Positions 4,890 through 54,267 are shown, numbered from the stretch's first letter. The stretch: 64,000 nt of DNA from Syntrophales bacterium (GCA_963668175.1 OY764159.1:2208001-2272000); one strand, 5' to 3'. Program-made: numbers and translations. The notes: a model not told the origin generated them from the sequence alone.

Positions 4890-5741
4890 ATGATCGTCGA
4901 TTGCCATTGCCACGCCTTTACGGAGCAGGTCGTCCGCAATGTGGTTTCGCGGACGGCGCTGGTGGCGGAACTCAAGCTGGACCCGGAAGCCGGGCGAAGG
5001 GCCGACGCCCGGATTTTAAGCGAATCGGCCGTTGCGCACGGCATCGACTGGTGCATCCTTTTCCCGACGGCCCCTCCGCAGGGTGTGAGGGAGGAGAACG
5101 ACCGCAGCATCGCCGCCGCTTCCTCTCATCCCCGCCTCCGGACCCTGGCGACGCTCCACCCCCGGATGGACGGCCTGGCGGCAGAACTGGAACGGATGCT
5201 CGCCCTGGGGATCGCCGGGTTCAAGTTCTCTTCGTTCTCGCAGCGCTTCGATGTCCTGTCGGAGGAAGCGGGAAGGATGTTTGCGGTTCTGGAAGACGCG
5301 GCCGCCTCGGGCAGGTCGTTCATGGTCGTCCTCGACACGTTCAACCGGGCCGACGTCCACTTCGGGGCCCGTCCGGAGCACATCGCGACGCCCGCGAAGC
5401 TCAACGCCGTCGTCGCCCGCCATCCCGCCCTTTCCTTCCTCGCCGCCCACATGGGAGGCCTCGCGGCCGACTTCGGCCTCATCCGCCGCGACCTGAAACC
5501 GGCCCCTAACCTTTTCCTCGACACGTCCAACGCCGCGCACGTCCTTGCGGAAGGTCAGTTTGTCGAGCTTCTGAAAATCCACGGGGCCGATCGTATTCTT
5601 TTCGGCACGGACTGGCCGTGGTTCGATCACGGCTCCGAAATGGCGCTGATCGACGCCCTTCTGGATTCGGCGGGATTCAGCCGGGCACAGAAAGACGCCG
5701 TTTTCGGCGACAATGCCGCCAGGCTCTTTTCGCTTGACTGA
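4890..5741 (+). CDS. amidohydrolase family (TIM-barrel metal-dependent hydrolase)
   Basis: MIVDCHCH, AAHMGG, LDTS, RILFGTDWPW, GDNAARLF; GGAGGGG RBS before ATG 4890. Confidence 0.9.
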   Translation: MIVDCHCHAFTEQVVRNVVSRTALVAELKLDPEAGRRADARILSESAVAHGIDWCILFPTAPPQGVREENDRSIAAASSHPRLRTLATLHPRMDGLAAELERMLALGIAGFKFSSFSQRFDVLSEEAGRMFAVLEDAAASGRSFMVVLDTFNRADVHFGARPEHIATPAKLNAVVARHPALSFLAAHMGGLAADFGLIRRDLKPAPNLFLDTSNAAHVLAEGQFVELLKIHGADRILFGTDWPWFDHGSEMALIDALLDSAGFSRAQKDAVFGDNAARLFSLD

Positions 5742-5831
5742 ACAAAGAAAACACAGAGGAAGGGGAAGAGAGAAGACCGTCAGGGCCGGGCGGCCGTAAC
5801 GGCGGTCGACGAACGGTCGCTGATCCGGCGC

Positions 5832-6116
5832 CTATATCGGCTTCCAGCCGGTGAGACACAGCATCTTGAAACCGAACAGGTTTTGAAGGCCGATCGCCAG
5901 GGGAAAGGGCGACTCGAATCCGACAGGCAGATACACTTTGACCTCGTTGACGACGGACATGCTGTAGTCGCCGGCGTTTTTCGGTATGCCCCGTCTCACG
6001 GACGGACCAAGGTTGATGCGCCCTCAGCAAAGACGCGAGTTCCCCGTGGTGAACAGGTGCACAACGCCGCCTTTGGTCAGCAGGTAATCGCGGGCGGGAT
6101 CGGTGATGGTAAGCAC
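5832..6116 (-). CDS. small selenoprotein with Cys-Sec motif (CC/Se-motif, HesB-like family), 94 aa; in-frame TGA at 6024-6026
   Basis: GTG start reads MLTITDPARDYLLTKGGVVHLFTTGNSRLC-TGA-GRINLGPSVRRGIPKNAGDY...VYLP...LFGFKMLCLTGWKPI*. The frame stays open for 63 codons after the TGA, and a hairpin CCGTC-CGTGA-GACGG follows it. Confidence 0.8.
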
Positions 6117-6321
6117 GACGATGCCTTTCTGTTTTTTGCTTTACGCCGGTCCGCAATGACCGGGCCGTTTCATTATTCAAAGGGACCCGACCAGTAAGCC
6201 GGGCGTTGCCTTCCCCTGCACCATTTCTTCGCTGGAAGAGACCCCCTCCCCGGAATCAAGCGTTATGGCCTTCCGCTCAAGACTTCCGGCCGTCCGCCGT
6301 CAGATATCCCAACGACCGTGA

Positions 6322-6331
6322 CATTATAGCA
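6322..6331 (-). promoter_or_regulatory. extended -10 promoter element upstream of the selenoprotein gene
   Basis: TGCTATAAT on the minus strand about 200 nt upstream of the GTG. Confidence 0.45.
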
Positions 6332-6559
6332 CGGAAAGGGGGGATTTAAGAAAACAACTTTTCGCGATGCGATCTTTATTAAAACCCTCGGCGATGGGCA
6401 ATAAAACAGAATGGGAGCGGGAGAGCTTCCGCAATATTCAGGACCGGGGGCGATTTCCATCCGGAAAGGAATAAGACGCCCTGATATCGGGTGGAAGAAC
6501 AGGTTGCCCTCCGATCAGGAGCAGGCATCGCCGGAATGCTTTGATTCTGCCGGGCCGTT

Positions 6560-7087
6560 CTATCTCTGTCTCTTCGCGATTTCTTTCAAACGGCTGCCGG
6601 CGAAAGGCTGGAAGGCGAACTGGGCCTCGGACTGGATGCTCGGGCAGCACATGGCGTCGCTCGGCGCGTAATTCTTTGTCGGTACGGCAACGACGACGTC
6701 GTTCTTCGATCGTCTCATTTTGATGTTGCCGGATTCGACGGCGCGTATGCCCTTGCCGCCCACGGCCATGACGTCGATCAGGCTCATCCTCGGCGGGCGG
6801 CCCGCCGCTTCGGCATCCAGGGACGCAAAGACGGCCATGTACTGGATGTGATTGTTGCCGCCGCCGAAGCCCTCAATCGTGAAGACCGCAACAGCCACGG
6901 TTGTGCCGTCCCGGTCCGTCGCGATCCGGATACCGCGGTATTCGGGGGACGAGACGGAATGCGAATCGCCCAGCATCGCCGCCAGCGCCGTCACCCTGGC
7001 GCCGACGTCGTCCCTGATCGCCCGGTCGTCGGCATGAGACAGAACGGGAACAAGTACCAGCAGTGCAGCAAGAATAAATCTTTTCAT
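6560..7087 (-). CDS. secreted hypothetical protein
   Basis: Signal peptide MKRFILAALLVLVPVLSHA; EGFGGGNN and DAMCCPS motifs; AAGGAA RBS. The ORF-track N-terminal extension is probably spurious. Confidence 0.75.
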   Translation of the reverse strand: MKRFILAALLVLVPVLSHADDRAIRDDVGARVTALAAMLGDSHSVSSPEYRGIRIATDRDGTTVAVAVFTIEGFGGGNNHIQYMAVFASLDAEAAGRPPRMSLIDVMAVGGKGIRAVESGNIKMRRSKNDVVVAVPTKNYAPSDAMCCPSIQSEAQFAFQPFAGSRLKEIAKRQR

Positions 7088-46923: not shown

Positions 46924-48093
46924 TTATCTCAACTGTTGCGATACGATTTCTGCGTTCGAGCAGCCCTTCGGCTGCCCTAATTCACAGGCCTTCTGAAAGT
47001 CGGGAAGCGCCCTTCTCAGATTCCCTTCCCGGTAGCAGGCCACGCCGCGATTCAGATATATCCTGCTTTGAACATCCCGTACGTTAATCGATATGGTAAG
47101 GGCGGTATCGTAATCTCTTATGGCCATCCCGTATTGACCGATCGCACTGTAGCTGTTGCCTCGATTGTAATAGATATTGGTCATCTCTTTGTACAGGGGG
47201 TCGTAATTATACCGGTCATAGATGCCCTGGATGAGCATGGTGTAGGTTTCTATCGCCTTGTGATGCTCATTCATGCCTGCATAACGATTCCCGATATCCA
47301 CCACCCGGTAAAGCAGGGAATACTCGTCTTTTTCCTGACATTTGACGTCGCATAGACTCAGCGCCTTTTTATAATCGGAAATGGCCCTGTCGAAATCGCC
47401 CAGTATAATGTAACAATGCCCCCGATAGGAATAGGCCTGGCCGTTCTGGGGGTCCAGGGCAAGCGCCGCGGTAAAAGCTTCCAGCGCTTTGTTCCATTCC
47501 GCCCCGCTCCAGATAGACCTGTTATAATATCCTACGGCCTTCTCATACCATTCATTCGCCTGGAAGCGCTTCTCGTCTCCGGCAATTTTTCCCTCCACCT
47601 CTTTTTTCCGGTCGCCCTTGGCGAGCAGCAACTGTTTCTTCAATTCCTCGATATCCGTTTGGCTCTTATCATAGGCGGTCTTGATTCTTTTGTAATCCTC
47701 GACGATAGTTCTTTCTTTCACTTTGCCTGCCATCTGATCCATTCTGTCCGAGTTTACCAAGGCCTTTATTTTGACCCAAAAATGAAACCCTTCTCCGACG
47801 ACCGTTCTTTTCTTGTCCAAAACGGTGACCTCCATGACTCCGGAAGCCATGATCTTTACTTCATCCGCCGTCAGTTGAAAATTTTTCACTTTGGAATAGC
47901 TTTCCACATAGGTACCCGCCTGCTCGACGGCGAGTCTTTTGGCATTCAACAAAGCCCGGCTTTCCGCAACACCCGGTGTCTCACCGTCACCCATATTATA
48001 CGTGCCTTCGCAGATAATTTCCTTGACTTCGGCAGGCGCTGCGATGGGTATTAATAAAAGAACAAGGATAAAGAACTTCACGAAGTATTTCAT
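46924..48093 (-). CDS. secreted TPR-repeat protein
   Basis: Signal peptide; AKRLAVEQAGTYVES N-terminal domain; several TPRs (AYSYRGHCY, YYNRGNSY, YLNRGVA, DFQKACELG). Confidence 0.88.
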   Translation of the reverse strand: MKYFVKFFILVLLLIPIAAPAEVKEIICEGTYNMGDGETPGVAESRALLNAKRLAVEQAGTYVESYSKVKNFQLTADEVKIMASGVMEVTVLDKKRTVVGEGFHFWVKIKALVNSDRMDQMAGKVKERTIVEDYKRIKTAYDKSQTDIEELKKQLLLAKGDRKKEVEGKIAGDEKRFQANEWYEKAVGYYNRSIWSGAEWNKALEAFTAALALDPQNGQAYSYRGHCYIILGDFDRAISDYKKALSLCDVKCQEKDEYSLLYRVVDIGNRYAGMNEHHKAIETYTMLIQGIYDRYNYDPLYKEMTNIYYNRGNSYSAIGQYGMAIRDYDTALTISINVRDVQSRIYLNRGVACYREGNLRRALPDFQKACELGQPKGCSNAEIVSQQLR

Positions 48094-48107
48094 GATATTC
48101 TCCTTTT

Positions 48108-48354
48108 AGCAGGCCGCGCTCCTGCGCAGGAGGCCAGCCTCGTCAATCGGCATCATTCTGCATATGCCTCATTATCACTGTGCCCCGCAGGGGGGCTTTT
48201 GCGCGTCCCCTAAAGGGGATAAACCCCCTAAAGGGGATAAACCCCCTGAAGGGGGCAAGGTCACCTAAAGGTGACAAGCCTTGCATCCGGACATTTTTGA
48301 ACCCCCCATTCGGGGGGCGCGGCAGCCTGTTTGAAATCGAGTATTTCAACAAGC
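48108..48354. mobile_element. MITE-like repeat, copy C, interrupted by about 7 short hairpin insertions
   Basis: Core blocks of copies A and B are present but split by TCCCCTAAAGGGGATAAA-type and CCCCCCATTCGGGGGGCGCGG-type units. Confidence 0.8.
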
Positions 48355-48571
48355 TTTTGGTAAATATTCTTCAAATTATCATTTATTAAGGAAGAAATCT
48401 ACGATTAACGATTGGCGCAGGGTTTTCAAATTCGTTGAGAGGGGCTGTTCAATGCATGATCCAAAGGCAGGACAAAGAAAATATATTCGGAAACAGATGT
48501 AAGTGGAAATGAGTTCGCAAAAGTGCATGGAATCGAACCCGTCGGGAAACTGGGATATTCTGTTCGGTTCC

Positions 48572-49714
48572 TTACCGCCGGAATGACGGTACGGCGAGGA
48601 CCAGCACGAGGGAAAACAGCGGGAAGATAACCTGGCCGCCCAGGAGCCATTCGATATTCGTGAGCTCGGCGATCTTTGCGAAGAGGACGACGAGCACCCC
48701 GCCCAGGCCCCAGACGAAGCCGCCCAGGAAGGAGGACACCGTCCCGACATAACCGGGGGCGCGCTCCTGCGCCATGACGATAAGGAGCGAAAAGGGGAGC
48801 ATCAGGAAGAGCCCCAGGAAGGCGAGGACGGTGATCTGGACGAGGCCCGCAGGCGGGGACAGGTTAAAGAGGGTCAGGAACAACGCGGACAAAACGGCGG
48901 AGAGGGCAAGCAGGGGAAGCCGCCCGGTCTTTTTGGCGGCGAGCGATCCGGCCAGCGGCCCCAGGGCGCAGCCCAGCGAAAAGGCGGACAGGAACAGGCC
49001 GGTCGCGCCCACGGACGCCCCCCACTGCCGCAGGTAAATCGGCACGAAGCTGTACAGGTTCATGGCCGTGATGCTCACGGCGAGGGCGAAAAGGAAGAGG
49101 GGGAAGATCGGGACGGCGATCTTCGCGAGGGGATAGCGGAAGCCGTCCGCATCCTTAGGCGCGGCCCTCTCCCCTTTCGGCAGGACGGCGAAGAGTGCGG
49201 CGGCCGCCGCGATGCCCGGAACGGCGATGAGATAGAGTCTCGAAAGGCCGAAGCGGGAAACGAACAGGGAAACGAGGGAAGGTCCGGCCACGAAGCCCAG
49301 CGACGTGGCGAGGAGAAGATACGAGATGACCGTGGGCATGCCGCCGGGGCGGGGGGCCTTCACGGCGGCGAAGGAAGCGGGATGGAAGGCGCAGATGCCG
49401 ACGCCCGCCAGGAGCAGGAGCACGATCAGCGTTGCGTAATCCGGGGCGAACCCCAGGCCGCCCATGCACGCGCCCACGGCCAGCGGCGAGAGGCAGAGGA
49501 AATAGTAATACCCCAGCCGGTCCTCGACCCAGCCGAAGAGGGGCTGCGGGAGGGCGTTGAAAAGGGAAAAGACGGAGACCAGGGCGCCCGCCTCGGTGAT
49601 CGTGAGCTTCATGTCCTGCATGAAGACGGGGAGCAGCGCCGGCAGGATGCTCGTGTAGGACGTGATCAGGAATTTGACGAAATAAAGCGAACCGTTTCTC
49701 ACGCGCGTTGCCAT
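48572..49714 (-). CDS. MFS transporter (Fsr-like)
   Basis: About 12 TM segments; QPLFGWVEDRLG motif A variant; GICAFHP. Confidence 0.9.
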   Translation of the reverse strand: MATRVRNGSLYFVKFLITSYTSILPALLPVFMQDMKLTITEAGALVSVFSLFNALPQPLFGWVEDRLGYYYFLCLSPLAVGACMGGLGFAPDYATLIVLLLLAGVGICAFHPASFAAVKAPRPGGMPTVISYLLLATSLGFVAGPSLVSLFVSRFGLSRLYLIAVPGIAAAAALFAVLPKGERAAPKDADGFRYPLAKIAVPIFPLFLFALAVSITAMNLYSFVPIYLRQWGASVGATGLFLSAFSLGCALGPLAGSLAAKKTGRLPLLALSAVLSALFLTLFNLSPPAGLVQITVLAFLGLFLMLPFSLLIVMAQERAPGYVGTVSSFLGGFVWGLGGVLVVLFAKIAELTNIEWLLGGQVIFPLFSLVLVLAVPSFRR

Positions 49715-49756
49715 TCTTGGATTTCCGGCCGCGATGCCCCGGGTTTCACTTGCGCT

Positions 49757-50320
49757 TCACGCTCCGCCCCAGCGCCGGAAAAGATTGTGCTCGACGCCCA
49801 GGAAATCGAAAACCTTCCCGACGGTCTGATGGACGATGTCGTCGATCGTCCGGGGCTGATGGTAGAAGGACGGGATGGGCGGCAGGATATGGGCGCCGCA
49901 TTCGGCCGCGGCCGCCATCAGCCGGATGTGGCCGAGGTGAAGGGGCGTCTCGCGGACAGCAAGGACGAGCTTGCGTTTCTCTTTCAATGTGACGTCGGCG
50001 GCCCGGATCAGGAGGTTCGCCGTATAGGAATGGGCGATGCCCGAAAGGGTCTTGATGGAGCAGGGGGCGACGACCATGCCGTCCGTAAGGAACGAACCGC
50101 TCGACAGGACCGCGGCCATGTCCTGATTGTCGTAGCTGTAATCGGCGAGCGCCTCGACCTCGGCGGGCTTGTACGCGGTCTCGATCTCCATCGTCTTCTT
50201 CCCCGCCTCGGAGACGATCAGGTGCGTCTCGACGTCCGTGTCCCGGAGGATCTCCAGCATCCTGATCCCGTAAATAACGCCGCTCGCCCCGGTTATGCCG
50301 ATCACGATCCGTTTCGCCAT
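49757..50320 (-). CDS. ubiX: flavin prenyltransferase UbiX
   Basis: GITGASG, SSGSF, APCSIKTL, RAADVTLKEKRKLVL, RETPL, PSFY. Confidence 0.96.
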   Translation of the reverse strand: MAKRIVIGITGASGVIYGIRMLEILRDTDVETHLIVSEAGKKTMEIETAYKPAEVEALADYSYDNQDMAAVLSSGSFLTDGMVVAPCSIKTLSGIAHSYTANLLIRAADVTLKEKRKLVLAVRETPLHLGHIRLMAAAAECGAHILPPIPSFYHQPRTIDDIVHQTVGKVFDFLGVEHNLFRRWGGA

Positions 50321-50368
50321 GCGCTGCCTTTATCCTTTCCGGGCCGCGGGGCCCGCATCTTCCTTCTG

Positions 50369-50597
50369 CAGGCTGTTGCTAATGTTAGGCGCGTTGCAAT
50401 GAGGGACCGCAACGCTTACACCGCCACATCTGTCGTTTATCACCTTCAGGTGACGTTGCGCTGCTGCGCCCCCTGCATAGGGGGCAAGCCTCGTCAATCG
50501 ACATACTCCTATGTATGCCTCATTCCTCGGCTTTCGCGCGCCTTACATCTGGACATTTTTGAACAGCCTGTTCAGAATCGAGTTTTTCAGCAATCTG
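50369..50597. mobile_element. MITE-like repeat, copy B, with 2-3 hairpin insertions
   Basis: CAGGCTGTT and AACAGCCTG inverted ends; core shared with copies A and C. Confidence 0.8.
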
Positions 50598-50985
50598 CCA
50601 GATATCGCGCCATGAATTTAATGAGGGCATCGACGTTGCCGACGACGTCGCGGATGGCGCCTTCGTCCAGGTTGTCCCAGTGAATGCCGGCGGCGACGGT
50701 CACGCGCGTGTCGAGGGCGGCGGAGAGATACTCGGACGCCTTCTTCACGACCTCGTCCTCCTTGTGGCCCACCACGCAAAGGACGGACGCCGTGGCGCTG
50801 GCCGCGGCGGGGTCCTTCAGGCTCGGCCGCGGCTGGGCCAGGGCGACGGCCCCGATATGCGGGCGCTCCCCGCCCCAGATGGCGACAAGGAGATCCCTGC
50901 CGATCCAGCGCGCGCAGGCGTCAAGGTCGTAACGGCCTTCTTCCGTCCTGAATGTGGCCCCATCCTGGGTTTTCGCTGCCTGCAC
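50587..50985 (-). CDS. LpdD-like prenylated-flavin binding/chaperone protein
   Basis: GRDLLVAIWGGERPHIGAV...GHKED...VAAGIHWDN; located between ubiD and ubiX. Confidence 0.8.
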   Translation of the reverse strand: MQAAKTQDGATFRTEEGRYDLDACARWIGRDLLVAIWGGERPHIGAVALAQPRPSLKDPAAASATASVLCVVGHKEDEVVKKASEYLSAALDTRVTVAAGIHWDNLDEGAIRDVVGNVDALIKFMARYLADC

Positions 50986-51184
50986 GTTTTCGCCTCTTTA
51001 ACTTCCGGTGAAATAAGCGGCCCCTGCCGCGCAACTTTTACATTGAAAATCATGGTCAATGCAAGACTTATCTATTTACAAACGGGCGGCCGTATGATTA
51101 TGCTCTGCTCTCCAAGTCGCCCATGATTTGGTCACATCGCATACATTACTGCCAGGAATACATAGAAAAGAAAGGATTCGGATT

Positions 51185-52633
51185 ATGAAAAGGGTCACTT
51201 TGCTGCTGCTTCTCGTTCTCATGACGGCTGTCGCTGCGCCGTCGTACGGAGCCGGAAAGGCTTCCGCGGACCTTCCCGGGACGGCCGACCGCCTCGTCGA
51301 CCTGAAGGCGACCATCGATTTCCTGGACAAGACGGGGAATCTCGTGCGCGTCAAATCGGAAGTCGATCCGGTGCTTGAACTTGCCGGCATCGCCAAGAAA
51401 TACGAAGGCAAGAAATGCATCCTCTTTGAAAAGGTCAAGGGGAGCGCCTACCCGGTTTTCATGGGCCTCCTGTGGAACCGCGACACCGTCGGCGCCCTCT
51501 TCAACGTCCCCAAGGAACAGGTCCCCTTCGTGATTGCGAGCGCCATCGGCGCCTGGCGTAAGGACAAGGAGGCGCTGGCCTCGCCCGTGCTGGCGAAGGG
51601 TCCGGCCAACGAGGTCGTCGTGACGAAGAACATCAACCTCTACGAACTGCCCGCGCCCGTTCACGCCCTGAAGGACGGCGGACCCTATTTCGATTCGTCT
51701 GTGGTGGTCGTGAACGACCCGGAAACGGGGAAGCCCAATATCTCCATTCACAGGATCATGATCGCCGGCAAGGACCGCCTCACGTTCCTCATCGACCCGG
51801 GGCGGCACCTGGGCGCCTATCTCGACATCATGGAAAAGAAGGGGAAGCCCCTCCAGGTGACGATCAACAACGGCGTCGGCCTCGCCCCCTGGCTGGTGTC
51901 CTCCGTGCCCGGAACGGGCCCCGGCAAGGCGACCATCGCGAGCCGGATCATCGGCAGGCCCATCAACTTCATCAAGGCGCAGACGGTCGATGTCCCGGCG
52001 TTCGCCGATGCGCAGTTCGTCATCGAAGCGGAGATCCTCCCGAACGTGCGGGAGCCGGAAGGCCCCTTCGCGGAAGTGACGGGCTACTACGGCGCGCGCG
52101 AGAAGCGCTGGGTCATGCAGGTGAAGGCCATCACCCACCGCAAGAAGCCCGTCTTCCATTCGCTCCTTTCGGGGCAGGAGGTGTGGAACGCCGTCGGCTT
52201 CACCGCCGAGGCGAAGATCTTCGGGACGGTCAAACAGAAGGTCGCGGACCTGAAAGCCGTTTACCTGCCGCCGGGCGGCTGCGGCTTCTACGGCGCGGTC
52301 CTGCAATTATCCAAGACGAAGGAAGGCGTCCAGAACACGGCCATCGAGGAGGCGTTCAAGGCGTTCCCGTCGCTGCAATGGGTCGTCGCCGTGGACGACG
52401 ACGTGAACATCTACGACCCCATCGACGTCGAGTGGGCCGTGACGACCCGCTTCAACGCGAAGAAGGGGTTCATGATGCTCCCGGACCAGCCGGGCCATAT
52501 CCTCAACCCCATGGTGGAGGGCGGCAAGGTCACGAAGGTCGGGGTGGATGCGACGGCGCCGTTCCCGCGCACGTCCGCGTTCGAGCGCACGAAATTCAAG
52601 GACGTCGATTTGAAGAAGTACAGGATCGAATAG
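51185..52633 (+). CDS. UbiD-family prFMN-dependent (de)carboxylase with N-terminal signal-peptide-like extension
   Basis: LVRVKSEVDP..EL, LFEKVKG, DGGPY, NISIHR, EGPFAEVTGYY, VDDDVNIYD..DVEWA..TR, KVGVDAT; N-terminus MKRVTLLLLLVLMTAVAAPSYGA. Confidence 0.93.
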   Translation: MKRVTLLLLLVLMTAVAAPSYGAGKASADLPGTADRLVDLKATIDFLDKTGNLVRVKSEVDPVLELAGIAKKYEGKKCILFEKVKGSAYPVFMGLLWNRDTVGALFNVPKEQVPFVIASAIGAWRKDKEALASPVLAKGPANEVVVTKNINLYELPAPVHALKDGGPYFDSSVVVVNDPETGKPNISIHRIMIAGKDRLTFLIDPGRHLGAYLDIMEKKGKPLQVTINNGVGLAPWLVSSVPGTGPGKATIASRIIGRPINFIKAQTVDVPAFADAQFVIEAEILPNVREPEGPFAEVTGYYGAREKRWVMQVKAITHRKKPVFHSLLSGQEVWNAVGFTAEAKIFGTVKQKVADLKAVYLPPGGCGFYGAVLQLSKTKEGVQNTAIEEAFKAFPSLQWVVAVDDDVNIYDPIDVEWAVTTRFNAKKGFMMLPDQPGHILNPMVEGGKVTKVGVDATAPFPRTSAFERTKFKDVDLKKYRIE

Positions 52634-52665
52634 AAAAATTATCGTGGAATCTCTTTAATGGTGCA

Positions 52666-52700
52666 AAGAAGGCGGGGCCGGCAACGGCTCCGCCTTTTTT
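52666..52700 (+). terminator. intrinsic terminator after ubiD
   Basis: AAGGCGGGGCCG-GCAA-CGGCTCCGCCTTTTTT. Confidence 0.85.
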
Positions 52701-52835
52701 ATTGTCTCAACTTCTTTCCCGTTCGAATATCAGGTGGATGATTCTCGCAGGCCTTCAATATTTTGATCAGGTCTTGATCGCTATCTATTTCACGTCCGGA
52801 AGGGGATATATTCATCGGTACGCTTCTTGCCCTCA

Positions 52836-53510
52836 TCACTTGTTGCCGGAGTCTGCCTTTTTCGCGGCAAGCCATCGGCGCAGCTCGCCAAGCGTGGTAA
52901 CGGGCAAATCGGGGCTGCCGACGACCGGGTGCGGCTGGGAACGACGGACCAGTTTATAGCCGCGGATATCAGCGTCCGCGGGCGGCTCAGCGGCCGGCGG
53001 CGTGAATTTCATCGTACCTTCGTGTCTGACACCCTTCGTCCCGGATGGCGCGGCCGGCCCGCCGTCGATATACGCATAGGCGAGGACGCCCGGCGATATC
53101 GGCGATATTTCTCCTTTGGCGCTGAATGCCGTAAAAGATGTCTTCTGCGTTAAGCTGCAAGGCCCGTTGGGGAAAGCGGAGGCAAGAAGAACGGCCGACA
53201 TTCCCTGGGTCATGGGAAGCATCCAGATGCTGTCGTATTGCAGCTCCGAGTCGGCGAGGCCTTTGACGAGAAGCGTTCCGCGGAGATAATAAATATCCGC
53301 AACGGTCCCGCCCGTTGTTAACGACAAATGATGTTCCTGGTTGGCAAATGCCGTCCAGACCGTTTGCATCTCCGGTGTCTTCAAGCTGTGGAAGGATGGA
53401 AAGGACCAATTGTTCGAACATGTTTCCGCATGCGAGATGGACAGAAATGTGATGAGAAATATCTGAATGAGAACAGAATGAAGAATTGTTGCTGCAATCC
53501 TGAAGATCAT
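52836..53510 (-). CDS. secreted hypothetical protein
   Basis: GGAGG RBS; hydrophobic N-terminus ending SHA. Confidence 0.7.
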   Translation of the reverse strand: MIFRIAATILHSVLIQIFLITFLSISHAETCSNNWSFPSFHSLKTPEMQTVWTAFANQEHHLSLTTGGTVADIYYLRGTLLVKGLADSELQYDSIWMLPMTQGMSAVLLASAFPNGPCSLTQKTSFTAFSAKGEISPISPGVLAYAYIDGGPAAPSGTKGVRHEGTMKFTPPAAEPPADADIRGYKLVRRSQPHPVVGSPDLPVTTLGELRRWLAAKKADSGNK

Positions 53511-53673
53511 GTTGCCTCCCCCCCCGATGACATCCCGGCGAACACTTGCCTCACAGGTTCTCGCGAAATAACATCTAGTTCATTTCATGACGCCTCCTGT
53601 AAAGGTCTTTCCATATGCGGGAGACGCGCAGCGAGGCTGCTATCTTCTCGTTTCTGCCGGGTGTGCGGCGACG

Positions 53674-54267
53674 CTATTTGACGTAAATCTTCTTAATGAC
53701 GACGGGGTCGACCGGTACGTCGCTCATGCCGTCCGTGAAGGTCGTCCGCACCGCCTCGATCTTGTCCACGACGTTCATGCCGTTGACCACCTTGCCGAAG
53801 ACGGTATAGCCGTAGCCCGCCTGCGTGGGGGCCGTATAGTTGAGGGGCGTGTTGTTGACCGTGTTGATGAAGAACTGGCTCGTGGCCGAGTGGGGATCGG
53901 ATGTCCTCGCCATGGCGATGGTGCCCCGCTCGTTTTTCAGGCCGTTCCCCGCTTCGTTCCGGACGGCGGGGCCCGTGTTCTTGGGCTGCATGTTGGCCGT
54001 GAAGCCGCCGCCCTGGATCATGAAGCCCCGGATGACCCGGTGGAAGATCGTGCCGTCGTAGAAGGTGTACTCGACGTAGCGCAGGAAATTCCTGACCGTG
54101 TCGGGGGCCTTCTCCGCGTTCAGCTCGACTTCGATGTTTCCCATGCTGGTCTCCATGACGACGACGGGGAACTTGGGATCGGCAGCCCGGGCGGCGCCGC
54201 CCGCAGAAAGGACGAAAAGGCAGGCGCAGAGTCCCGCCAGAATCAGTGTGCTGTACAGTTTTCGCAT
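53674..54267 (-). CDS. ppiA: periplasmic cyclophilin-type peptidyl-prolyl isomerase
   Basis: Signal peptide; YDGTIFHRVIRGFMIQGGG, AMART, SATSQFFIN, GYTVFGKV. Confidence 0.93.
   Translation of the reverse strand: MRKLYSTLILAGLCACLFVLSAGGAARAADPKFPVVVMETSMGNIEVELNAEKAPDTVRNFLRYVEYTFYDGTIFHRVIRGFMIQGGGFTANMQPKNTGPAVRNEAGNGLKNERGTIAMARTSDPHSATSQFFINTVNNTPLNYTAPTQAGYGYTVFGKVVNGMNVVDKIEAVRTTFTDGMSDVPVDPVVIKKIYVK

Follow-up and report, generated by a model that had tools for sequence, protein, structure and literature searches.

The 64,000-nucleotide stretch of a Syntrophales bacterium genome treated here (GCA_963668175.1 OY764159.1:2208001-2272000; hereafter the window) carries, at positions 48,572 to 52,633, a gene for a UbiD-family (de)carboxylase with a predicted Sec-type signal peptide, divergent from an lpdD-like gene, ubiX and a gene for a major facilitator superfamily (MFS) transporter. 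The best explanation of this locus, given a probability of about 0.6 as a whole, is that the UbiD enzyme is exported, that UbiX and LpdD stay in the cytoplasm, that the cofactor prenylated flavin mononucleotide (prFMN) crosses separately, and that the MFS protein is the lead for this crossing. UbiD would pass through the Sec translocon in unfolded form, directed by an N-terminal signal that is then cleaved off, and would work in the periplasm. Its prFMN would be made in the cytoplasm by the adjacent UbiX, probably held there by LpdD in the reduced form, prFMNH2, and would then cross the inner membrane separately from the enzyme. The leading candidate carrier in the lineage of the window would be the Fsr-like MFS protein, whose gene ends the lpdD-ubiX-MFS string; where this gene would stand, other lineages with the enzyme have an ABC-2 pump. 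Export of the enzyme is probable from its sequence and that of its relatives. The MFS protein as prFMN exporter is a tentative lead, and not a universal one.

The UbiD gene (51185..52633, + strand) encodes 482 aa. Its frame is open from a TTG at 51128, but the ATG at 51185 is the preferred start, because a ribosome-binding site, GAAAGGA (51170-51176), lies 8 nt upstream of it and a 97%-identical homologue (P0001) starts there. The product begins with MKRVTLLLLLVLMTAVAAPSYGAG, in which the putative signal peptide (51185..51250, +) has the n-region MKR and the h-region VTLLLLLVLMTAVAA, and is followed by the predicted mature enzyme (51251..52633, +). Methionines in the N-terminal part are residues 1, 13 and 93, Met13 lying within the hydrophobic stretch, and the other in-frame starts are GTG codons at 54 and 63 alone. 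Both are within UbiD_N, which begins at residue 44 according to Pfam. Once Met13 is passed, the next methionine does lie deep in the UbiD core, as had been stated in the initial annotation, which also placed the four genes and their divergent orientation correctly. Residue 39 aligns with residue 5 of the structurally solved enzymes AnInD and HmfF, and 38 extra residues stand ahead of the canonical fold.

Signal peptides were scored by a home-made strict heuristic, not SignalP, that asks for K/R, then an uncharged run with a 9-residue hydropathy of at least 2.0, then small residues at -3 and -1 within 12 residues past the run. The window UbiD passes with an n-region charge of +2 and a 9-residue hydropathy of 3.39; candidate cleavage sites (hyphenated) are AVA-AP, after residue 17, and SYG-AG, after residue 22. 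A word-indexed search returned 1426 proteins at E ≤ 1e-20, the best 120 of which are 67-97% identical and mostly 475-496 aa long, and 92 of these 120 closest homologues pass. By eye, 20 of the 28 failures keep the hydrophobic segment and fail through a shifted gene start or for want of K/R, three begin at the c-region, two are fragments, and three have short hydrophilic ends. The heuristic passes none of 132 outgroup UbiD representatives (at least 420 aa, exhaustive search) and none of 68 distant UbiDs. The extension is not private to the window, a hydrophobic segment with the same properties being found across a large clade of homologues.

These properties fit a translocation signal. In the 108 usable homologues, the median net charge is +2 in the n-region and -1 in the 15 residues past the segment, the n-side is the more positive in 102 of 108, and the apolar core is 14 residues long at the median. 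Nearly all homologues begin with basic residues, continue in a hydrophobic run and then have a site of small residues (VSA-Q, GFS-Q or AAA-Q, for instance). In a 31-row alignment, the core has a mean column identity of 77%, and the first ~30 residues are without consensus. A twin-arginine motif (S/T-R-R-x-F-L-K) is missing from the window protein (MKRVTLL), and RR-like strings occur in three of 108 homologues, in keeping with the original description of a Sec-type signal without twin arginine. A lipobox (L-[AS]-[GA]-C) is likewise missing, residues 1-40 of the window protein having no Cys, and one homologue (P0112) has the lipobox LLAGC in place of the cleavable signal. As judged from the sequences compared, the conservation of the segment is not due to chance. 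It fits a Sec signal that is cleaved and leaves the catalytic domain outside the cytoplasm, because of the charge bias, the apolar core, the scarcity of RR, the lipobox variant, and properties that are conserved without a conserved sequence.

The enzyme itself is predicted to be a prFMN-dependent (hetero)aromatic acid (de)carboxylase of the AnInD/HmfF branch. Its UbiD_N, UbiD and UbiD_C domains all score above their cut-offs (PF20695, 60.2 bits; PF01977, 166.9 bits; PF20696, 83.3 bits), as does TIGR00148 (270.1 bits; cut-off 244.85). Matches to solved structures are AnInD (7p9q, 4.8e-103, by phmmer) and HmfF (6h6v, 1.7e-88), and entries of both rank first in Foldseek, with template modelling (TM) scores of 0.68-0.82. 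Among solved enzymes, AnInD, the indole-3-carboxylate decarboxylase of Arthrobacter nicotianae (PMC8988006), is the top match: phmmer aligns it over residues 39-481, and Foldseek gives 41% identity with TM scores of 0.77-0.82. It has the three-domain fold of UbiD and an E(D)-R-E network in common with the window enzyme; unlike the window enzyme, it begins at the fold, with no N-terminal extension or signal, and has a D-E pair before the IA motif where the window has G-K. The second-best match, HmfF (2,5-furandicarboxylate decarboxylase of Pelotomaculum thermopropionicum, 6h6v/6h6x; 37-38% identity, TM 0.68-0.78), differs in being without a signal peptide. Many homologues are named HmfF by the Joint Genome Institute (JGI), by automatic name transfer alone. 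In an AlphaFold (AF2) model from 31 sequences, with a mean predicted local distance difference test (pLDDT) score of 74.9, residues 2-17 form a helix, pLDDT is below 50 at 17-29, and the fold starts from about residue 33.

The catalytic motif EGPFxE is intact, as first annotated, and reads EGPFAE at residues 292-297. Catalytic R190, E292 and E297 are all present in the mature enzyme, and the E(D)-R-E network is present in the family, R190 in 81/82 rows, E292 in 81/82 and E297 in 82/82; their equivalence to R173, E277 and E282 of Fdc1 was taken from alignment spacing and the titles of PDB entries. The whole family has G-K where most UbiDs have a D-E pair before the I-A motif. The lysine, K248 (51926-51928), is found in 82/82 family rows, with or without a signal, and the outgroup has E in 95/126 and K in 23/126. 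Glu in this column is presumably a Mn2+ ligand that holds the phosphate of prFMN. This role was not confirmed in PMC8988006 or PMC8379154. Lysine at position 248 could mean metal-independent cofactor binding. Assignment as the menaquinone decarboxylase MqnL/SCO4490 was rejected, TIGR03701 giving 145.1 bits against a cut-off of 495.9, and MqnA/MqnD (PF02621) have no match in the window genome, which is 100% complete. A quinone-pathway function was dismissed on these two counts and on the nearest structures, which act on soluble acids.

Close relatives of the enzyme exist with and without the segment. Loci were collected from a scan of species genomes (11) and a scan of metagenomes (80), and frames were read upstream of a conserved RLVDL motif. 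The hydrophobic segment is present in L002-L057 and L059, where the 10-residue hydropathy maximum is at least 2.4 except in L046 (1.8). In L058 and L060-L099, 61-71% identical to the window UbiD, a short hydrophilic extension such as MKKHASVSNKPMPEKMAQRL is found instead, and four loci have a cut N-terminus. A quick maximum-likelihood tree was made from 82 non-identical family rows and 6 outgroup rows, leaving out the truncated L034, L049, L078, L083, L084, L086 and L090. The window falls inside an all-signal clade of 35 rows (support 99), nested there in a clade of 10 (support 99), and the remaining 47 rows comprise 12 signal-bearing and 35 signal-less ones. As predicted from sequence, the signal is labile within this tight family, because the label changes 3-4 times on the tree; the direction, gain or loss, is not told by it. 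A second UbiD family (P0304-P0353) likewise has signal-bearing forms of ~480 aa, 10 of 44 passing the heuristic, and signal-less forms of ~458 aa, with 65-79% identity between the two forms. As judged from both families, putative export signals are gained or lost repeatedly in UbiD evolution.

The three genes divergent from UbiD are those for making and presumably holding the cofactor, and one for a membrane transporter. The LpdD-like gene, of PAC_bac fold (50587..50985, - strand; 132 aa), matches PF21758 at 6.3e-35 (119.8 bits; cut-off 27). Its product has no hydrophobic N-terminal segment or signal peptide, and an alignment of 13 orthologues has 28 invariant columns and a hydrophilic N-terminus in 13/13. 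It is presumed to be a cytoplasmic prFMNH2-binding chaperone, the function being taken from the available part of work on LpdD (PMC10865409). The ubiX gene (49757..50320, -; 187 aa) encodes the flavin prenyltransferase making prFMNH2 (NF004685, 265.6 bits, cut-off 188; TIGR00421, 251 bits) and lies 865 nt from the UbiD start, on the opposite strand. The window holds the sole UbiD-family gene and the sole ubiX of the genome, PF02441 matching only this ubiX and one 410-aa frame elsewhere. The last gene of the string (48572..49714, -) encodes the MFS transporter of 380 aa (PF07690 MFS_1, 3.3e-30), in which a 19-residue hydropathy scan gives 10 peaks, or about 10-12 hydrophobic spans. MFS_1 is the only curated model above its cut-off, all 11 NCBIfam matches being far below theirs. 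The family is small (33 proteins at E ≤ 1e-30), and the name 'FSR family fosmidomycin resistance protein-like', given by several sources (JGI, NCBI, automatic Atlas cluster names), is a label alone. A complex prediction for the MFS protein and LpdD scored 0.00 (mark 0.32) and weighs neither way.

Neighbourhoods were compared by tblastn with the window proteins and the neighbours of locus L010 over the 91 related loci plus the window, and 63 + 39 ORFs (open reading frames) were searched against Pfam. An exporter gene, for this MFS or for an ABC-2 pump that comes with a membrane methyltransferase, is adjacent in 28/50 signal-bearing loci vs 0/38 signal-less ones; the same comparison gives 16/50 vs 0/38 for ubiX and 14/50 vs 0/38 for lpdD. 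When non-identical rows with at least 1 kb downstream are counted, an exporter is adjacent in 25/38 signal-bearing and 0/26 signal-less rows. Four arrangements can be told apart. In arrangement A, a Syntrophus-like clade of 10 rows, MFS-ubiX-lpdD is divergent from UbiD. The MFS gene stands beside UbiD in 5/5 arrangement-A loci having at least 2.9 kb upstream, i.e., the window, L007 (Syntrophus buswellii), L021, L023 and L026, and in L020, L022, L024, L025 and L031 the contig ends before the MFS position, past lpdD and/or ubiX. In arrangement B, seen in 23 signal-bearing loci and 4 with a cut N-terminus, the genes that follow UbiD encode an ABC ATPase, an ABC-2 permease and a ~355-aa methyltransferase, often with ubiX and/or lpdD near. 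Arrangement C is signal-bearing with none of these adjacent (e.g. L002-L005, L012, L027-L033, L044), and in arrangement D the MFS, the ABC-2 set, the methyltransferase, ubiX and lpdD occur in 0/38 signal-less loci within their flanks. The methyltransferase of arrangement B (~353 aa in L006 and L008-L011, among others, e.g. L010 10215-11276) starts with two hydrophobic spans, carries a C-terminal region past the class I fold that is conserved, and has no orthologue in the window genome.

The signal-less sisters have other neighbours. A series of 433-, 166- and 348-aa ORFs occurs in 6 of the 12 signal-less loci laid out (L065, L066, L068, L074, L075 and L077; 66-69% identical), and in both loci submitted to Pfam, L065 and L075, it is DctM/DctQ/DctP, a TRAP importer. 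Beside the TRAP genes are 3-hydroxyacyl-CoA-dehydrogenase-like and octopine-dehydrogenase-like genes, and these neighbours are a possible clue to the substrate of the family. The overall pattern is an exporter beside signal-bearing forms and an importer beside cytoplasmic forms. No statistics are claimed for signal vs exporter, because the contrast amounts to 1-2 phylogenetically independent pairs.

The distribution of the MFS gene gives further indications. An orthologue (E ≤ 1e-40) is found in 3/301 genomes of the order of the window (G000, G046 and G063), each time by ubiX-lpdD and a signal-bearing UbiD, and UbiD of the window type is found in 5/301 (G000, G046, G029, G080 and G160). Neither was found in 8 other genomes of the window's own family. 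The GC content of the cassette (48572-52633) is 62.5% vs 55.8% for the genome, placing it in the top 4% of 4-kb windows, with 47.8% in the left flank. This composition, together with the patchy occurrence (5/301 in the order, 0/8 in the family), suggests that the cassette has spread horizontally. The genome G063 is the most informative, having an operon in the order lpdD-ubiX-UbiD-MFS. Its proteins are 71% (UbiX), 62% (LpdD) and 54% (MFS) identical to those of the window, vs 27% for UbiD, and this UbiD (L122 5472-6911), which belongs with the second family described above, has a signal peptide of its own, beginning MKKKQYFTALSIIIFLILLFCPVQSKA-KMF. On this one extra instance, the MFS appears to track the cofactor genes and not the UbiD subfamily. 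A mere hint is that an MFS of the family (P0297) and a signal-bearing second-family UbiD (P0306) are both listed on a JGI contig of 10454 nt. With the G063 UbiD as query over the order and the phylum, the only matches were G063 itself and a single fragment at the end of a contig, and in a phylum sample of 401 genomes the MFS had only two matches, of 32-34% identity, with no UbiX or UbiD beside them. In G000 and G046 (complete) and G063 (94% complete), the sole UbiD is the signal-bearing one, and the single UbiX is inside the module. With one UbiD and one UbiX in a genome, the cofactor must reach the signal-bearing enzyme. The number of UbiD-domain matches shows a striking expansion elsewhere in the order, with 15 in G029 and 36 in G080 vs 1 each in G000, G046 and G063.

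The initial annotation had asked whether signal-bearing UbiDs co-occur with the MFS, and the outcome is mixed. Co-occurrence holds for the Syntrophus-like loci with enough flank (5/5) and for G063 with its unrelated UbiD, and fails for other signal-bearing lineages, from which the MFS is missing. The new element in the window is a candidate module for supply and export of the cofactor, the lpdD-ubiX-MFS string; this reading is strengthened by the G063 operon and the single-client genomes, and weakened by the lineages without the module. That it could be a portable module for prFMN synthesis, holding and export, serving unrelated Sec-exported UbiDs, is conceivable and somewhat doubtful.

The alternatives concern both the transporter and the signal. 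The enzyme may be exported and the MFS be unrelated to the cofactor, carrying the aromatic substrate or product or importing a flavin precursor for UbiX, with prFMN leaving by a general route. Substrate carriers of the MFS are common neighbours of UbiD decarboxylases; an MFS gene of 30% identity adjoins an unrelated UbiD paralogue in G001, and among the weak NCBIfam matches of the window MFS are aromatic acid:H+ symporters (TIGR00895, 36 bits; cut-off 418.55). Moreover, the orthologue is missing from five genomes with a signal-bearing UbiD, so that it is no general requirement, and three genomes of the order sample (G029, G080 and G160) have the UbiD and no MFS orthologue at E ≤ 1e-40. A substrate carrier would not be expected, however, to stay with lpdD-ubiX when the UbiD is swapped for one 27% identical. 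The MFS is also found in 0/38 signal-less sister loci and in no order-sample genome without a signal-bearing UbiD, although the two 301-genome searches were not shown to cover one and the same set of genomes and orthologues of the G063 UbiD were sought at E ≤ 1e-100 only. Cofactor export is ranked above substrate transport for the MFS because it is kept across the enzyme swap and no cytoplasmic UbiD client exists, and an MFS unrelated to prFMN is considered rather unlikely. The segment could also be an uncleaved signal anchor, tethering an external catalytic domain to the outer face of the inner membrane. The N-in, C-out charge bias in 102/108 homologues is equally that of an anchor, uncharged runs reach 30 residues in some homologues, and the lipobox variant P0112 implies that membrane tethering is tolerated. 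The median apolar core of 14 residues is, however, short for a membrane span, and in most sequences a Pro/Gly break is followed by small residues at -3/-1 (e.g. VSA-Q, GFS-Q, AVA-A), which makes an anchor improbable.

Two further alternatives would spare the cell a separate export of the cofactor. The enzyme could be cytoplasmic, its N-terminus either tethering it to the inner membrane face, e.g. for a prenylated lipid-soluble substrate as in quinone synthesis, or being left untranslated. Besides removing the problem of cofactor export, this agrees with the pairing of the gene with a UbiE-like membrane methyltransferase in other lineages and with a UbiA prenyltransferase gene convergent to UbiD in L012. 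It is opposed by the direction of the charge bias, by alternative starts that would truncate UbiD_N, by the small soluble heteroaromatic acids that are the substrates of the nearest solved relatives, by the sub-threshold MqnL score (145.1 bits vs 495.9) and the lack of MqnA/MqnD in the genome, and by the lipobox variant, which implies translocation; it is accordingly given little credence. Export of a folded holo-enzyme, loaded with prFMN in the cytoplasm, by the twin-arginine translocation (Tat) pathway despite an atypical signal would solve cofactor delivery without a carrier, and the n-region of the window protein does contain K-R. Short, strongly hydrophobic h-regions are typical of Sec, not Tat, signals. 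Here such h-regions prevail (9-residue hydropathy 3.39 in the window), RR-like motifs occur in just 3/108 homologues and many homologues have a single K, and Tat export is hardly credible.

Several points weigh against an exported UbiD fed by an MFS-borne cofactor. The heuristic passes 269/2579 ORFs of at least 300 aa in the window's own genome. The label of signal needs 3-4 changes on the tree, some apparent signal-less forms may be gene-call or assembly effects (e.g. L061), and relatedness could produce much of the contrast between signal and exporter, which comprises only 1-2 independent pairs. Thirteen of the 38 non-identical signal-bearing rows with at least 1 kb downstream have no adjacent exporter. 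In five metagenome-assembled genomes (MAGs) of arrangement C, searched whole and of unknown completeness, neither an MFS orthologue (best matches 29-31% identity, one of them adjoining another UbiD paralogue) nor the membrane methyltransferase was found, and LpdD was found in one of the five; UbiX is encoded elsewhere in the genome in all five. If the arrangement-C enzymes are exported and active, prFMN must also exit without this MFS. G063 is one extra instance only. The direction and substrate of the MFS are not indicated by the genes, Fsr-like being a source label. Export of prFMN would be without precedent, and the route from prFMNH2 to the active iminium form outside the cell of an anaerobe is a difficulty.

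To our knowledge, every characterised UbiD enzyme has been treated as cytoplasmic. UbiX makes prFMNH2, which UbiD binds and oxidises, an activation picture that assumes one compartment. A literature search turned up neither an exported UbiD nor extracytoplasmic prFMN, subscription-only papers being outside its coverage, and the earlier statement that no extracytoplasmic UbiD pathway has been described is upheld to this extent; in the parts available, PMC8269228 and PMC13416013 have signal peptides on other proteins only. The closest system in gene content is the LpdB/LpdC/LpdD gallate decarboxylase system of Lactobacillus plantarum, in which LpdD, according to the available part of the report, is a prFMNH2-binding chaperone that helps to activate apo-UbiD (PMC10865409). 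As in the window, ubiX, UbiD and an LpdD-fold protein are encoded together; that system is wholly cytoplasmic, whereas in the window the UbiD has a putative signal for export and the lpdD-ubiX string ends in an MFS gene. In logic, the closest is Bfe/FccA of Shewanella oneidensis, where a periplasmic flavoprotein is fed by an exported flavin (PMC12485616, as far as available). A flavin made in the cytoplasm, a dedicated exporter and a periplasmic flavoprotein, as reported there, follow the same logic as proposed here. The likeness drawn here is one of logic, and no prFMN exporter is described in the papers searched. Bfe is presumably a MATE-family carrier of FAD. Arrangement B has the same UbiD family as the window, but an ABC-2/methyltransferase pair where the window lineage has the lpdD-ubiX-MFS string.

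Other features of the locus are as follows. The divergent intergenic region (50986..51184), which contains the ribosome-binding site of UbiD, has a sigma-70-like match at 51075-51104 (+), a consensus match alone. An Rfam scan of 47800-53800 gave nothing above the gathering score and no FMN riboswitch; weak L20_leader/ar35 matches at 52610-52707 are sub-threshold. The spacer between lpdD and ubiX (50321..50586) is 266 nt long vs 43 nt in Syntrophus buswellii (L007; lpdD 6276-6668, ubiX 5673-6233). It contains one copy of a short repeat dispersed through the genome, where blastn with the spacer as query finds another 38 partial matches (22-165 nt, 75-100% identity), and this copy looks like a repetitive extragenic palindromic (REP)- or miniature inverted-repeat transposable element (MITE)-like element inserted within the operon. 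Downstream of UbiD are a 224-aa protein (52836-53510, -) whose N-terminus is hydrophobic and which matches neither Pfam nor NCBIfam, and a 197-aa ORF (53674-54267, -) that, by reading alone, resembles a cyclophilin-type prolyl isomerase and has a signal-like N-terminus. The two were discarded as parts of the system, since neither was matched in any of the 11 genome loci.

If the clade of Sec-signal UbiDs is what it appears to be, prFMN would cross the inner membrane, apo-UbiD would fold and load its cofactor in the periplasm, and oxidative maturation would take place in the periplasm of strict anaerobes. The window is a compact, testable set of four genes, and the cultured Syntrophus buswellii (L007/G046) has the same arrangement. 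In both genomes, the putatively exported enzyme is the only possible client of UbiX, and the close signal-less sisters by TRAP importers are a natural control pair. An export-competent UbiD with a prFMN exporter would be useful in whole-cell (de)carboxylation biocatalysis of substrates that do not enter cells. Should the portable module prove true, the MFS would stand as the first exporter dedicated to a modified flavin cofactor, and prFMN-dependent (de)carboxylation, together with assembly of the holo-enzyme and maturation of its cofactor, would extend to the periplasm of anaerobes.

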